Source of the DNA: Chloroflexota bacterium
GTDB taxonomy: Bacteria; Chloroflexota; UBA11872; VXOZ01
Direction: 5' to 3'
Length of the DNA: 64,000 bases
Assembly (NCBI GenBank): GCA_965221905.1
Contig: OZ244922.1
Span: 2,752,001 to 2,816,000 of the forward strand
The notes below the pieces were generated by a model, which was not told where the DNA came from, did not search any database, and worked only from the letters and a program-made list of their open reading frames with translations. Shown here piece by piece: positions 18,189 through 30,540 of this stretch. The number at the start of each line of letters is the position of its first letter. Positions within the stretch are counted from its first letter, which is position 1. The position numbers were made by a program, and so were the translations under genes.

Positions 18189-18207
18189 AAAGTATGCAAG
18201 GCTTTGC

Positions 18208-18308
18208 AGTGCATTCCCTCCGCAGGTATTACCCTGATCAGGTTCAAGGGTATGAGGACGTAAGCGCGTCTCTCGTCTCAGCCCGGACTCTCGGGCTCCC
18301 CTATCACG
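18208..18308 (-). promoter_or_regulatory. TPP riboswitch
   Basis: Minus strand: gggGAGCCCG..CGGGCTGAGA...ACCCTTGAACCTGATCAGGGTAATACCTGCGGAGGGAA, the THI-box consensus elements (CTGAGA, ACCTGAT, GTAAT.C..GCG.AGG). Confidence 0.95.
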
Positions 18309-18367
18309 CCACTCTTCAATTGTCCGACGCCGTTTACTCTATCACTATCGTGTCAAACGTGCAACAG

Positions 18368-19093
18368 CTATCGTCCCCCCAGAAACGCTTCGAGCACAAG
18401 CCGAAACTGACGCAAGCATTCTATTGCAAAATTGCGCTGATTAGCCACACGTCCGGAATCCGCAAGTAAGTGCGTGGTTGTCCAGACCTGCTCCTGTCCA
18501 GCATGTAAGTCAGCCGTAGACTGGGACCTGGCGCCCCGCCCACATGTGTGTTCTCCTTCATCGCTTGACTCTGCCGTAGCGCGGGGACTTGTCCCCCGCT
18601 CCTCTGCCAGTGGACCGATTCCACTCGGCCCAGCCACGGCAAGACACGCCATTCCCACCGGTTTCGCGGAACGGCGGCCGGTTTGGGGACCGGCAATGCC
18701 ACTCTCCGCCAGCGCCCAATCGGACGCAAAGGTGCGCCGGGCTAATTGTGCCAGGGCTGCCGCGTATTCCTCGCTCACAACACCGTGTTCGCTTGCTACG
18801 CCCTGAATACTCTGCACGAGCGGCGTCCTGCTGCCCGCGTATACAATAATCCCACCGCGAAACCACTCTTCATGCGCGGGAATAGCATGGATGAGCATGG
18901 CGATGGCGCCACCGGCGGCAGTCTCTGCCACTGCGAGCGTCTCTCCCCTTTTGGCAAGTGTCGTTCCAACTCCATCGAGCAGACGCTGCAGGTTGAGGCT
19001 TGTTTTCGCCCCCGCACCTTGACTGCGCGCCTCGGCATCTGAGCCCCGGTCTAAAGATGACCTTGCCGGACTATTCAGCCAGGGTGCGTTCAT
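18368..19093 (-). CDS. CinA C-terminal/PncC-like protein with degenerate motif and in-frame repeat-derived insertion; start uncertain
   Basis: LAVAETAAGG, WFRGGIIVY, HGVVSEE.A, SGIAGP, KPVGMACLAV. 5' end overlaps the selB stop. Confidence 0.75.
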   Translation of the reverse strand: MNAPWLNSPARSSLDRGSDAEARSQGAGAKTSLNLQRLLDGVGTTLAKRGETLAVAETAAGGAIAMLIHAIPAHEEWFRGGIIVYAGSRTPLVQSIQGVASEHGVVSEEYAAALAQLARRTFASDWALAESGIAGPQTGRRSAKPVGMACLAVAGPSGIGPLAEERGTSPRATAESSDEGEHTCGRGARSQSTADLHAGQEQVWTTTHLLADSGRVANQRNFAIECLRQFRLVLEAFLGGR

Positions 19094-20942
19094 CGCCATC
19101 TCGCTGGGTGACATTATCACGGTCCATTTGCTCCAACAATGGCAGCACGTACTTCCGACTTGTGCCAAAGACGTCTCGTAGCTGTGCCACCGTGGCGCGA
19201 GCTTCCCGCGCCAAATGCTCACGCACCTGCGCCACCGCCTGTTGGTAGGCTCGACGCGAATAGATGAGGTCATTGTTCACCCGGACAATCCGGCCCTGCG
19301 CTGCCAACACGTTCACCAAGTCATCGTCCAATGCGAGCGACGTACGAAGGTCGCCCAGACTCGGGGGCGCCATTGGCTCTCGTTCCAGCACGTCGAGCAA
19401 AGCCGTCGCCACTTCCTCTTGCACCGCGCTCAACGCAATCGCAAACCCAAATTGACGCAGGTCGCCTCTCTCTTCCGCTATCACCTCGTCGGCACAGAGC
19501 CGCCGCACGATCTGGTTGAAGACGCGGCTTTCCAATCCAAGCTGCCGCCGCACTTCCTCTTTTCCCATGCCGTTGCGCAAGGAGTAGCGCACGTGAAAGT
19601 CCTGGACTACAGAGACCAAACGCTCTGTAATCTCGGCCCAACCGGCAGCGGAATAAAGAAAACTGCCCAAGTCTACGGCTCGTTCCGCACCCAGCAGCCC
19701 TGCCAAAACGTCGTCAATCTGCGCGGTGGTGAGAGGCAACACTCGATTGAGCACGTCTTGCGTGCAGGGCTCCCGCTGCCGAATAGCCTGCAGCACCACG
19801 TCATCGGGCGAGCCGCGCTCCAACGTATCCAAGGTCGAAATCACGTCTTCCGCAAAGCGTTTATGGCGGGGCGGGTATGGGTCGAGGACTTCGCCGCCAC
19901 CAAGGGTACAAGACGGGCTGAGTTGCCGGATGATGAAAAGATCGCCCTTGATGAGACTTGCAGGTTTAACGAGAAGCAGTTGTACAAGCCCATCTTCCCC
20001 TGGCGAGATGGTCTCACGATCGAGAAGCCTAACACGGGCGAGAGTTTCCATGGTCCCGGCATGGAATGTAACCATAGTCCCGTGAACCAGCGGGCGAGGC
20101 GCGGCAGGCAAGAGCCGGATGCGTACGTCCGCAAAGCGCGTAGCGGCAAGCATGCGGGGCAATGTGAGTACCTGTCCGCGATAGACTTCATCAACGTCAA
20201 CCCCGCCTACGTTGACGGCAACGCGATTACCAGGCAGAGCGTTCTCGATCTTGTGCTTATGACTCTGCAGCCCGCGTATGCGGCCGCTCATGTTGCCGGG
20301 AACGACGTGGACGTCGTCACCGACGTGGAGTTGACCGTCGAGCAGCGTGCCGGTGACCACGGTGCCAAAGCCACTGAGGGTGAAGGCCCGATCGATAGGC
20401 AGGCGCGGGCGGCCTACGTCCCGTTTAGCTTCCGTATCTGCGAGCAAGTCATCGAGGACACTGCACAGTTCGTCTAATCCCTCTCCAGAAATTGCGGATA
20501 CACGCACTAGCGGGCTATCGGCGAGTACAGTACCTGCCACCGTTTCACGCAGCTCTTCCTCAACAAGGTGCAACCAATCTTCGTCTTCAACCAGGTCGCA
20601 CCGCGTTAGCACCAGTACTCCCGCCGGCACCCGCAGCAAGTCCAGAATGTCAAGGTGCTCGCGAGTCTGGGGCATCACGCCTTCATCGGCGGCAACCACC
20701 AACAGACCCGCATCAATTCCACCCACACCCGCCAGCATGTTCTTGATGAAACGCTCGTGACCGGGCACGTCGACTATTGAAATCTCCTTGCCGCTGGGCA
20801 GCGTAAGCCACGCGAATCCCAGATCGATCGTCAGCCCACGCTCTTTTTCTTCGCGCAGCCGGTCCGGGTCTATACCCGTAAGCGCCTGAATCAGCGTAGA
20901 CTTGCCGTGGTCGACGTGACCTGCAGTGCCAATCGTGAACAT
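19071..20942 (-). CDS. selB: Selenocysteine-specific translation elongation factor SelB
   Basis: GTAGHVDHGKS, DPDRLREEKERGLTIDLGFA, DVPGHERFIKNMLAG, C-terminal winged-helix SRKY..P.LE..D motif. Confidence 0.97.
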   Translation of the reverse strand: MFTIGTAGHVDHGKSTLIQALTGIDPDRLREEKERGLTIDLGFAWLTLPSGKEISIVDVPGHERFIKNMLAGVGGIDAGLLVVAADEGVMPQTREHLDILDLLRVPAGVLVLTRCDLVEDEDWLHLVEEELRETVAGTVLADSPLVRVSAISGEGLDELCSVLDDLLADTEAKRDVGRPRLPIDRAFTLSGFGTVVTGTLLDGQLHVGDDVHVVPGNMSGRIRGLQSHKHKIENALPGNRVAVNVGGVDVDEVYRGQVLTLPRMLAATRFADVRIRLLPAAPRPLVHGTMVTFHAGTMETLARVRLLDRETISPGEDGLVQLLLVKPASLIKGDLFIIRQLSPSCTLGGGEVLDPYPPRHKRFAEDVISTLDTLERGSPDDVVLQAIRQREPCTQDVLNRVLPLTTAQIDDVLAGLLGAERAVDLGSFLYSAAGWAEITERLVSVVQDFHVRYSLRNGMGKEEVRRQLGLESRVFNQIVRRLCADEVIAEERGDLRQFGFAIALSAVQEEVATALLDVLEREPMAPPSLGDLRTSLALDDDLVNVLAAQGRIVRVNNDLIYSRRAYQQAVAQVREHLAREARATVAQLRDVFGTSRKYVLPLLEQMDRDNVTQRDGDERTLAE

Positions 20943-27970: not shown

Positions 27971-28708
27971 ATGTTTCTCGATGTAGGAATTGCATTCGGC
28001 GGTGGAATTCTCTCTTTTCTCTCGCCGTGCTTTCTCCCACTCATACCGGCCTACCTTGTTTACCTCGGTGGACGCCAAGCCAACGCCGTCCGCCACGATA
28101 AGTCACCGCGCCGTGCCGTCTTCATCAATGCCCTCGCTTTCATTCTCGGATTTGGCACGATATTCATCGCCCTCGGTGTAGCCATTACCTTCGTCGGCCT
28201 TGCCTTTCAGCAGGGGCTGCCTACGATGCGGCTTGTCGGCGGCGGGTTGCTCGTCATCTTTGGACTAAGTTTCCTGGGCCTCCTCCGTGTGCCCTGGCTG
28301 CAGCAAATCCTGCAGCGTGAAGTTTCGCTCCGCAACACGCCGCTGGGCCGCATCGACACGGAGAAGACCGGTCCAATCACCTCTTACTTGATCGGTCTCG
28401 TATTCGGGACGGGCTGGACGCCCTGTGTCGGCCCGATACTCGGGGCAATTCTGCTCCAGGCTTCCGGTTCCGACACTGTGCTCCGCGGGGGCATCTTGCT
28501 GGCAATTTACGCCGCCGGCATGGGCATTCCGTTTCTCGCCATGGCAGTGGCCATCGATCGGGCCTCTGCGCTTCTCAAATGGCTCAGGTCCCACATGTTG
28601 GCGGTCGAACGGGTGAGTGGCGTGTTCCTGATCCTAATGGGGATTGCGGTCGCAACGAACTTTCTAGCGATGATCTCTGGCATACTCGGGATATACTCGC
28701 TAGGATAG
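27971..28708 (+). CDS. ccdA: CcdA/DsbD-beta transmembrane electron transporter
   Basis: SFLSPCFLPLIPAY and GWTPCVGPILG redox Cys motifs, 6 TM segments, SD GGAGG. Confidence 0.93.
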   Translation: MFLDVGIAFGGGILSFLSPCFLPLIPAYLVYLGGRQANAVRHDKSPRRAVFINALAFILGFGTIFIALGVAITFVGLAFQQGLPTMRLVGGGLLVIFGLSFLGLLRVPWLQQILQREVSLRNTPLGRIDTEKTGPITSYLIGLVFGTGWTPCVGPILGAILLQASGSDTVLRGGILLAIYAAGMGIPFLAMAVAIDRASALLKWLRSHMLAVERVSGVFLILMGIAVATNFLAMISGILGIYSLG

Positions 28709-28911
28709 CAGGTAAGGGATCAAATTCTTCACTAGGGTGGTGTACGATCAGTGCCGGTATGTTCGAGACTCCAAAGACGAATGAGGTCAAAGGACGGTAG
28801 TTCCGGAGTGGGCACTGGATGTTAGTATGCCGGACTATGCCTAATAGGGTCTGAGGCCATAGAACTTTCTGAGTGTCGCGTGTAAGAAAGAAACAATAGG
28901 GAGTGAGAGCA

Positions 28912-29580
28912 ATGCGACGACGATCTGTATGCTCGCTACTGCTCAGCGGTGCGTCCGTAGCCGCGCTAGCGGCGTGTGGCGGCGGCTCAACACTGCTAGA
29001 AACTGAGGAGCAAGAGCCGGCAAGCGCCAAGCAAGAGGCCGCGGCGGAGCCGACCGCCGCCCCTGCGGAAGCTCAACCGACGGCTGAACCCGCGAAGCAA
29101 GCTGAAGTTGAGCCGACGGCCGCGCCAACCCTTGACCTGCCCAACTTTGGGAAGGCACCGGAGATTACGCTCACGGAATGGCTCAATTCCGAGCCCATTA
29201 CGTTGGCAAGCTTGGAGGGCAAGGCTTCCGCTCTAATTGTCTTCTGGACATACACCTGACCGATTTGCCGCGGCGAAATCCCCAGTTGGGTGGATATTCA
29301 GAGCAAGTACGTTGACGACGGCTTCAAACTCATCAGCATCCACATCCCGGCCTTGGGTGCTTCCACGGACGTAAGCGTCATTGCCGAACAGGCATCAAAA
29401 CTTAACGCTGCCTTTCCGATTGGGATAGACAACGGTAAGGTAATCTGGGACGCCTTCGGCAACAATGCCTTTCCGGTAGCCTACGGTATCGATAAGCAAG
29501 GGAACATTCGCTCTAAGCAGGTCGGTCCCGGCATCGATACGATCATTGAGGTAATAGAGAAGCTCAAAGCGGCGGGCTAG
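28912..29580 (+). CDS. Selenocysteine-containing TlpA/DipZ-type thioredoxin lipoprotein (UPIC motif; Sec codon 29257-29259)
   Basis: ORFs 28903..29259 and 29290..29580 are in the same frame, separated only by TGA: FWTYT-TGA-PICRGEIPSWVD...KLISIH.P...FPIGIDN...WDAFGNNAFP.AYGIDKQGNIR. RR and LAAC signal. Confidence 0.9.
29278..29295 (+). promoter_or_regulatory. Candidate bacterial SECIS hairpin
   Basis: AUCC-CC-[AGUUG]-GG-U-GGAU starting 18 nt after the UGA, with bulged U and GU-containing loop. Confidence 0.7.
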
Positions 29581-29617
29581 CACTACGCCACTTGAGTTAG
29601 CGCTCTTTGGAAGAGTT

Positions 29618-29654
29618 GCCCGCTTGCGGTCCGATAGTCTCACCGCAAGCGGGC
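29618..29654. terminator. Terminator-like hairpin between the convergent selenoprotein genes
   Basis: 13-bp perfect stem gcccgcttgcggt / accgcaagcgggc followed by cttatt. Confidence 0.7.
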
Positions 29655-29868
29655 CTTATTGCCTAGAGTCGCAAACCGGCGTGCCAGATGCGAGTCTCTT
29701 GTGCCGTGAAGACGAAGGGCTGCAGGAACCAACGGCGCATACTTGAGCGGGGAGGGGTCTCCTTTAGCTGACGATCAGACTGTGATGCTTACGGACCCCT
29801 CAAACTAAACTTTCTTCCTTACGAACGAGCTACATGTATCCGAAACTATTGAGCAGCGCCCCCACCTC

Positions 29869-30540
29869 TTAGCCAAATTCCTTGAGCTTCTCCACGGCTT
29901 CAATCACGATCTCGAAGTTACCGCCGCCGAATTTCGCAAACCGGATATTGCCCTGCCGATCGATGCCGTAGAATGCCGGCCACGTACGGTTGCCAAAGGC
30001 ATTCCAAAGTACCAGATCGTTGTCCACTACCACCGGATAGTTGACGCCGAGGGCGTCGGCCCGCTCCTTAATCTGGCTGATGTCACCAGAAGAACCGGCG
30101 TGCGGAAAGTGCACGCTGATCAGCTTGAAGCGGTCGTCGTGGTAGGTATTGAAGAGGTCCACCAAACTGGGGACTTCGCCGCGGCACACCGGTCAGGTGT
30201 AAGTCCAGAAGACCACCAGGGCAGCGGCTTTGCCTTCCAGACTCGCCATGGTGATGGGTTCAGAGTTGAACCAACCTGTGAGGGTAATCTCGGGTGCCTT
30301 GCCGAGGTTAGGCAGGTCAAGTGTTGGCGCCTGTGTGGCCGCAGGTTGCGCCTCCGCTTGGCTCTCAGACTTTGGCTGCTCTTGCGCCGGGGCGGCAGTC
30401 GGCTCCGCCGCGGCCTCTTGCGTGGTGCTTGCCGGCTCTTGCTCCTCAGATTCCGGCAGTGCTGAGCCGCCGCCGCACGCTGCCAGCGCGGCTACGGACG
30501 CGCCGCTGAGCAATAGCGAGCATACAGAACGTCGTTGCAT
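29869..30540 (-). CDS. Second selenocysteine-containing TlpA/DipZ-type thioredoxin lipoprotein (UPVC motif; Sec codon 30195-30193)
   Basis: ORFs 30193..30540 and 29869..30189 join in frame: FWTYT-TGA-PVCRGEVPSLVD...YPVVVDND..LWNAFGNRTWPAFYGIDRQGNIR. SD GGAGG, RR and LAAC signal. Confidence 0.9.
30157..30174 (-). promoter_or_regulatory. Candidate bacterial SECIS hairpin
   Basis: GUCC-CC-[AGUUU]-GG-U-GGAC at the same 18-nt distance from UGA. Closing pair is G-C here and A-U in the paralog. Confidence 0.7.

Follow-up and report, generated by a model that had tools for sequence, protein, structure and literature searches.

Predicted DipZ-type selenocysteine lipoproteins encoded beside ccdA in a Chloroflexota genus

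The closest relative of known structure of the proteins considered here is DipZ of Mycobacterium tuberculosis (Rv2874; structures 2hyx and 5cyy), which we take to be a single polypeptide composed of a CcdA domain, a TlpA-like domain and a C-terminal domain, the last presumably being the domain described by PF17991. Here we have analyzed a 64,000-nt stretch of the genome of a Chloroflexota bacterium (contig OZ244922.1; hereafter the window, to whose positions all coordinates refer unless the genome coordinate G000:C1 is given, G000 being the window's own genome), in which two paralogous genes, A and B, lie beside a ccdA gene and each carry one in-frame TGA. Both are almost certainly genuine selenoprotein genes, the insertion of selenium itself being deduced from genome comparison.

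Other described proteins resemble the predicted products in part. ResA and YkuV of Bacillus subtilis and TlpA of Bradyrhizobium are likewise extracytoplasmic, membrane-tethered TlpA-like reductases following a CcdA-dependent logic: in the accessible text of PMC3781833, CcdA or DipZ gives electrons to membrane-anchored thioredoxin-like partners in cytochrome c maturation. They differ from A and B in having a Cys-x-x-Cys active site and a transmembrane anchor, and they are further away in sequence than DipZ. TlpA-like proteins with selenocysteine (Sec, U) in a UxxC motif have been catalogued since 2005. As far as the available portions of these sources go, the Sargasso Sea survey of that year (PMC1088965) predicted TlpA/thioredoxin-fold UxxC selenoproteins from Sec/Cys pairs together with selenocysteine insertion sequence (SECIS) elements, PMC1794560 lists a 'Thiol:disulfide interchange protein' and a 'Prx-like thiol:disulfide oxidoreductase' among Sec proteins, and a table in a 2026 review (PMC13188914) contains TlpA-family (cd02966) UxxC and UGC forms as well as NF041057. 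Genes A and B extend that kind, and their mechanism is ordinary. A preliminary description of the locus, made from the letters of the window, had spoken of a hidden system; this goes too far, since UxxC TlpA-like and thioredoxin-like (seleno)lipoprotein families are already present in these catalogues. Compared by description and not by sequence, the catalogued UxxC TlpA-like and thiol-disulfide isomerase-like proteins share with A and B a predicted TlpA-type thioredoxin fold and a UxxC motif that opens with Sec; they differ in that linkage to ccdA is nowhere mentioned in the accessible text. The word 'ccda' is absent from the available text of PMC1794560 and of a 2022 preprint, as is 'lipoprotein' from that of PMC13188914. 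Our search of the literature on Sec combined with DipZ, CcdA or Chloroflexota lipoproteins returned no description of a FWTYT-U-P[IV]C family or of its ccdA context, although supplements may list such genes.

In-frame TGA codons of genes A and B

Under translation table 11 the locus appears as four short open reading frames (ORFs), at 28903-29259 (118 aa) and 29290-29580 (96 aa) on the + strand and at 30193-30540 (115 aa) and 29869-30189 (106 aa) on the - strand. Reading TGA as U fuses these four into two frames: gene A (28912-29580, + strand, with its stop codon at 29578-29580), which encodes 222 aa, and gene B (30540-29869, - strand), which encodes 223 aa. The TGA, at 29257-29259 in gene A and at 30195-30193 in gene B, corresponds in both products to residue 116, within FWTYT-U-PIC and FWTYT-U-PVC, respectively. 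The ATG of gene A at 28912 is preceded by GGAG, 8 nt upstream, and the two products share 65% identity.

When 40 relatives, 16 genomes of the same genus among them, were searched in six frames, one in-frame TGA was seen in each high-scoring match from all 16 congeneric genomes; because the TGA recurs in every one of these orthologs, the observation is far beyond chance. Both paralogs are held by 13 congeners (14 genomes with G000), the second match being N-terminally shortened in G003 and G016, and G010 and G011 have one paralog each. In all 30 A/B genes read, the motif FWTYT-U-P[IV]C is present, the TGA occupies the identical codon and the resolving Cys119 is kept. Downstream of the TGA the ratio of non-synonymous to synonymous substitution rates (dN/dS) is 0.157 for gene A (13 orthologs) and 0.141 for gene B (15 orthologs), two B-type genes having been left out of the calculation (L028 on the - strand, with a second TGA, and L040 on the + strand, with one extra codon). 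These values argue that the frame after the TGA is under purifying selection, i.e. that it is translated. The second in-frame TGA of L028, the B paralog of G004, stands where the others have a Trp codon (LTG*FNSE); this gene may be a decaying copy, contain a sequencing error or have a read-through site there.

Outside the genus the corresponding residue is mostly cysteine. In a phylum sample of 301 genomes, 55 had a match at E <=1e-18, those beyond the genus being mostly Cys forms; C-x-x-C occupies the U116-aligned site in 18 of the 19 Cys-form loci, and the remaining locus (L074) has no motif recognizable by pattern. Across an alignment of 50 public proteins, position 116 is invariant (Cys). 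U116 also aligns to the first Cys of the C-I-N-C motif in DipZ, and U-P-[IV]-C to C-H-L-C in YkuV. The Cys/Sec alternation that the preliminary description had anticipated is thus found among the related genomes, with the TGA kept in the 16 congeners, and its central claim, of two genes, each with the TGA of a Sec codon where a CxxC has its first Cys, agrees with the coordinates, with the TGA=U translation and with the alignments to Cys forms and to DipZ.

The Sec machinery is complete in the genome: tRNA-Sec (selC) scores 67.1 bits, SelA 468, SelD 380 and SelB 361 bits, all above the curated cut-offs. The selB gene had been noticed in the window from the outset, and its hidden Markov model match extends over 19080-20936 (- strand; G000:C1:2771080-2772936; TIGR00475, 360.7 bits for a cut-off of 242.25); selA, selC and selD, on whose presence elsewhere in the genome the proposal depended, are there as well. 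The selD gene (L014, G000:C1:1231935-1232864, - strand) carries a TGA of its own, in the context LAACAG-U-AGKLGP. As TGA terminates 592 of the 1861 open frames that reach 300 codons or more, it is an ordinary stop and the genetic code is therefore standard.

Standard annotation had been expected to fragment such genes, and the public protein sets bear this out. A set of 5.8 billion public proteins of 122-389 aa yielded 55 matches with identities of at most 47% (at most 42% where at least 53% of the query is covered), nearly all of them Cys forms with an additional C-terminal PF17991 domain. Among the matches listed for shorter proteins, 50 out of 50 are halves of 74-121 aa, which cover 19-52% of the query at up to 98% identity; five of the six halves that bear a name are called 'hypothetical protein', the exception being a 'glucose/arabinose dehydrogenase'. 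Since these sets hold halves only, annotation splits genes A and B, and current selenoproteome counts for Chloroflexota are too low. Counting the third paralog described below, each genome across the genus gains three selenoprotein genes that had escaped annotation, two of which are within the window.

The candidate SECIS hairpin

When the 26 distinct sequences from the genus were submitted to RNAalifold, the program, unprompted, folded into a hairpin the stretch lying 19-42 nt downstream of the U of the UGA. In gene A this candidate SECIS element spans 29275-29298 (+ strand), with a core stem at 29278-29295 (nt 22-39), an AGUUG loop and one bulged U; in gene B it spans 30154-30177 (- strand), with the stem GUCCCC/GG-U-GGAC and an AGUUU loop. 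In both genes the call is based on RNAalifold, covariation and synonymous constraint. Over the 26 sequences, 99% of cells can pair on the stated structure, versus 37-55% when the partners are slid. The pair 22-39 is AU in 18 sequences, GC in 8 and broken in none, and the covariation score of the hairpin was reached by 0 of 500 shuffles. Synonymous diversity (heterozygosity) over the hairpin codons, +6 to +13, amounts to 0.057 in gene A and 0.055 in gene B, against 0.267 and 0.299 elsewhere in the respective genes. Among the 140-141 sliding windows per gene, the lowest values are found at codons +1 to +6 after U, and the hairpin of gene B is the single lowest of its 141 windows. A constraint at the RNA level thus lies exactly after the TGA in both genes.

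Sec forms from three other families of the phylum, outside the genus, have a hairpin at the matching place with other stem sequences and with GUU in the loop. The stems are UAAUCCCG/CGGGAUUG in G281 and G304, AUUCCUUC/GAAGGAAU in G058 and G217, and AUUCCCUC/GAGGGAAU in G126; as the ungapped alignment A2 sets these stems in another register, pairs were not counted on it. The hairpins of genes A and B agree with the feature given for bacterial SECIS elements in the accessible text of PMC1088965, namely a small apical loop containing G. Two further hairpins were observed. In selD, GCGCAG-GUU-CUGCGC lies ~30 nt after the UGA, again with a GUU loop. In G295 (L069, - strand), the full stem is retained by a Cys form that is surrounded by Sec forms, and the loop G is replaced by C (CUU); to judge from its sequence, this gene may well have switched from Sec to Cys recently and have kept its SECIS element as a relic.

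These data bear directly on the proposal that the TGAs are true stops, belonging to pseudogenes or split genes, or are read through as Trp or Cys. Public gene calls do stop at the TGA (among the matches listed, all 50 short proteins cover <=52% of the query), the second TGA in paralog B of G004, in place of a Trp codon, could be a sign of decay, and the hairpin is thermodynamically ordinary. However, the TGA is shared by 30 congener genes with a dN/dS of 0.14-0.16 downstream of it, relatives have Cys at the aligned site, the Sec machinery is complete, TGA is in common use as a stop (592/1861) and the RNA-level constraint directly follows it. On the grounds of TGA conservation, downstream selection and standard stop usage, we have rejected a pseudogene, a sequencing error and a reassigned TGA, and any such explanation now appears highly improbable.

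Domain architecture, export and the relation to CcdA

Both proteins match AhpC-TSA, their top Pfam family (43.1 bits for gene A and 50.8 for gene B; cut-off 26), as well as Redoxin (40.6 and 39.1 bits; cut-off 26.6). Their top solved relative is DipZ (2hyx/5cyy, E 2e-19), followed by YkuV (E 8.6e-16), ResA (1.7e-10) and TlpA (8.5e-4), so that the TlpA/DipZ-like domains proposed in the preliminary description are borne out. The alignment to DipZ begins with 'APE...WLN', includes F-W-x-Y-x-C-x-x-C and takes in the remainder of the thioredoxin fold. The sequence comparisons support an assignment of genes A and B to the DipZ-type branch of TlpA-like proteins. Pro188, invariant in the 50-protein alignment, is the sole pointer to the cis-Pro loop of a thioredoxin fold. 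A further likeness lies in the functional tie of the TlpA-like domain of DipZ to a CcdA-type membrane module, as genes A and B stand beside ccdA. Unlike DipZ, they are not fused to CcdA, which is encoded by a separate gene, and they are predicted to have a lipid anchor, a stalk and Sec as the nucleophile. They also lack PF17991: the Pfam scan of A and B gave no match to this domain, and both proteins stop after the thioredoxin domain, although most Cys-type public relatives have PF17991 at their C-terminus. The earlier label of a 'split DipZ' is therefore inexact. In the NCBIfam scan of A and B nothing reached its cut-off, the matches below it being ResA (the top one), WAxxUGC and the Rcas_1661 (seleno)lipoprotein family. 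Among the 50 aligned public homologues (P0003-P0054), 33 have C-x-N-W, with the first Cys only, 16 have C-x-x-C and one has C-x-N-S; there is thus a large 1-Cys branch within the DipZ-like family, most of whose members bear PF17991.

The N-termini of A and B read M-[RQ]-R-R-S-V-C-S-L-L-L-S-G-A-S-V-A-A-L-A-A-C22, with a conserved LAAC lipobox conforming to the usual lipobox consensus. In gene A the predicted signal peptide and lipobox, MRRRSVCSLLLSGASVAALAA-C22, are encoded at 28912-28977 (+ strand) and were detected by a scan for lipobox-like motifs; in gene B their counterpart, MQRRSVCSLLLSGASVAALAA-C22, lies at 30475-30540 (- strand), as judged from the translation and the motif scan. Such a motif is present in 37 of the 40 Sec-form genes scanned. 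C22 is followed by a stalk of ~50 residues, in which Ala, Glu and Pro (also Thr and Gln) abound; across Sec-form genes, between 53 and 98 residues separate the lipid-bearing Cys from U, which fits a flexible linker. The lipoprotein signals and the Ala/Glu/Pro stalk that had been noted at first sight are thus upheld. R-R-x-hydrophobic is the motif of twin-arginine (Tat) signals, and its occurrence in A and B is only suggestive as regards the choice between the general secretory and the Tat export route. Lgt (201 bits), LspA (127 bits) and TatC are present in the genome, and an extracellular, lipid-anchored location of A and B is plausible.

ccdA (27971-28708, + strand; 245 aa; Pfam DsbD_TM, 68.6 bits for a cut-off of 27.1) encodes a membrane thiol-disulfide electron carrier; an alignment of 16 sequences shows no variation at its two cysteines of catalytic type, C20 and C152. 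The gene is separated from gene A by a spacer of 203 nt; this spacer (28709-28911) differs among strains by many variant letters, one insertion and one deletion, and a DNA contig of run X3 skips 111 nt of it (28711 to 28823). The linkage of ccdA to the Sec genes is stable, being found in 15/15 genus loci, i.e. in 15 of the 16 genomes; the sixteenth genome is 69% complete and has only an N-terminal fragment at the ccdA locus. Of the 19 Cys-form loci, 14 likewise have a ccdA no more than 1.5 kb away. Both genes had initially been described as directly following ccdA. The association itself stands; gene B, however, is convergent with gene A, so that only gene A lies downstream of ccdA on its strand. 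Two of these 14 loci, L070 (G203) and L077 (G177), elsewhere in the phylum, have open frames of 622-628 aa in which a stretch similar to CcdA precedes the TlpA-like domain in the same orientation; by their sequences they look like DipZ-type CcdA-TlpA fusions. The genome also harbors a second ccdA (L061:1486-2199, G000:C1:2513093-2513734), 43% identical to that of the window, which has no thioredoxin-like neighbor and is flanked by a solute-binding-protein-like ORF and a large ORF.

Taken as a whole, it is probable that genes A and B encode recoded, exported and lipid-anchored DipZ-type Sec reductases fed by CcdA. According to this scheme, the UGA of each gene would be recoded to Sec by SelB and tRNA-Sec, guided by the small hairpin that starts ~19-22 nt after the UGA and displays G-U in its apical loop. 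The ~220-aa product would be exported and anchored to lipid at Cys22, the ~50-residue stalk holding the domain off the membrane, and its C-terminal DipZ-type TlpA-like thioredoxin-fold domain would have U-P-x-C as the active site in place of C-x-x-C. Electrons would pass from cytoplasmic thioredoxin to C20/C152 of CcdA and from there, outside the membrane, to the U116-C119 selenosulfide; the selenolate would finally reduce oxidized cysteines of extracytoplasmic substrates. We infer all of these steps, from selenium insertion, export and lipidation to the electron flow from CcdA and the nature of the substrates, and the CcdA relay in particular is suggested by synteny and by what is known of the family.

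In the textbook scheme of cytochrome c maturation, the reducing arm consists of CcdA and a thioredoxin-like protein anchored in the membrane (PMC3781833), and A and B might be dedicated ResA/CcmG-type reductases of that pathway, fed by CcdA and acting on the CxxCH motifs of apocytochromes. CcmF- and CcmC-like genes do occur in the genome, and ResA is the top NCBIfam match of A and B, below its cut-off. Yet the ccm genes are ~170 kb away, ResB was looked for in the genome and not found, and A and B fall into the DipZ branch, not into that of ResA or CcmG. Moreover, two membrane-anchored Cys-type proteins with W-C-T-P-C are encoded elsewhere in the genome and match the corresponding models far better (148 and 104 bits for ResA, 70 and 94 bits for DsbE, versus 43-51 bits for A and B). 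Because of the missing ResB and of these two proteins a dedicated role in cytochrome c maturation is quite improbable; we have rejected it on these two points and on the placement in the DipZ branch. The presence of the two canonical Cys-type ResA/DsbE-like genes also implies that the substrates of A and B are probably not apocytochromes c.

Alternatively, A and B could be real selenoproteins working independently of CcdA, acting as surface selenium peroxidases or scavenging oxidants or metals, with the position of ccdA a historical leftover. AhpC/TSA is indeed their top Pfam match, and T113-x-x-U116 resembles the TxxU of Sec-peroxiredoxins, for which the accessible part of PMC13188914 gives the motif PxxxTxxU. 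The 33 of 50 homologues with the first Cys only indicate that a resolving Cys is not essential to the family, and this alternative also accommodates the Sec genes remote from ccdA and the strand of gene B, both detailed below. On the other hand, the Pro of PxxxTxxU is missing, residue 109 being Ile or Val, no Arg is invariant in the 50-protein alignment, and Cys119 is kept in all 30 A/B genes read. The closest solved relatives, DipZ, YkuV and ResA, are disulfide oxidoreductases and not peroxiredoxins, and the adjacency to ccdA in 15/15 genus loci and 14/19 Cys-form loci also speaks against this alternative. We regard a CcdA-independent function as unlikely.

Several results nevertheless weigh against the proposed selenium-dependent, CcdA-fed reductases. 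As regards ccdA, gene B is on the opposite strand, and ccdA is within 1.5 kb of none of the ten Sec loci other than A and B (third paralog and out-of-genus Sec forms). As regards the family, A and B score 15.4 and 16.4 bits with NF041057 (Rcas_1661; cut-off 190) and 27.6 and 39.5 bits with NF041054 (ResA-like WAxxUGC; cut-off 300). These are curated thioredoxin-like families with Sec forms, NF041057 consisting of lipoproteins, and with scores so far under the cut-offs A and B are therefore outside both. As regards the hairpin, the other seven stem pairs are nearly invariant within the genus, so that the within-genus covariation rests on pair 22-39, the only stem pair that varies. The folds of 60 nt after the UGA are no more stable than those of shuffled sequences (z +0.19 and +0.34; with folds of 60 or 86 nt, z is +0.19, +0.34, -0.30 and -0.13). 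Of 1000 synonymous recodings, 243 equal or beat the native energy in gene A and 78 do so in gene B; in other Sec forms 24-251 of 1000 have equal or lower energy, and Cys forms behave similarly. Between 34 Sec sequences and 20 Cys sequences no difference in local minimum free energy emerged (p 0.14); chance off-frame motif matches account for two of the 'Cys' rows. No SECIS-type Rfam match was obtained, either at gathering thresholds over the whole window or at E <=10 over 29150-30300, and a covariance model of the genus hairpin is weak on the Sec forms of G281 and G304 (E 0.0067 and 0.054) and missed those of G058, G217 and G126. As folding energy gave no signal, the SECIS call rests on position, conservation and covariation. 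Finally, both genes do occur in RNA libraries: three studies yielded metatranscriptome contigs that extend over genes A and B, both TGA places included (X17 records 12 and 16; X18 records 17 and 18), X18 record 17 spanning ccdA to gene A. These contigs are no proof of transcription, and what they establish at the TGA places is coverage.

If genes A and B are such reductases, they represent a natural Sec-for-Cys swap in a predicted exported, CcdA-linked reductase, for which Cys-type, 1-Cys and fused DipZ-type relatives are available for comparison. The system would be well suited to asking what selenium gains in the oxidizing extracellular space, even though the type of mechanism is not new.

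Further Sec paralogs, evolution and other features of the window

The count of two paralogous Sec reductases given initially is too low, as a third paralog is located elsewhere in the genome, away from any ccdA (L047:1390-1980, G000:C1:414877-415341). It encodes 196 aa, with an LSAC lipobox, the motif FWTYG-U-INC and no long stalk, and stands between the 3' end of leuS and a metallophosphoesterase-like ORF. This gene and its TGA are kept in 16/16 congeners, with a similar hairpin whose loop is GGUCU. A fourth Sec thioredoxin-like gene (L050:1486-2370, G000:C1 ~2.321 Mb) encodes W-A-S-W-U-G-C followed by a TPR-like tail and lacks a signal peptide; its score with the NCBIfam model WAxxUGC_long, 157 bits, is under the cut-off of 300.

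A tree of 55 domain sequences, in which Sec was treated as Cys, unites A and B in a single clade whose branch is long (0.82), and their nearest sequences are the third paralogs of the genus. All 32 Sec forms of the genus are on one side of a well-supported branch, and two or more switches between Sec and Cys have to be assumed on the tree. Since long branches meet in this tree, any order of evolutionary events is only a suggestion. With this in mind, we tentatively propose that the place beside ccdA, held in related families by a long Cys-type DipZ-like protein, has been taken in this genus by a duplicated pair of Sec lipoproteins, and that the pair arose from a free-standing Sec gene which survives as the third paralog. 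The outcome might be a selenium-dependent extracytoplasmic pathway in which a Cys-Cys carrier reduces a selenosulfide and the paralogs serve different surface substrates.

As to the remaining features of the window, ARAGORN detected no tRNA in it, and a scan for promoters and terminators gave no promoter-like site and one terminator-like site, within gene B. A thiamine pyrophosphate (TPP) riboswitch was recognized at 18197-18312 (- strand; 59.6 bits, the gathering score being 54.3); ~770 nt separate it from the match to selB.

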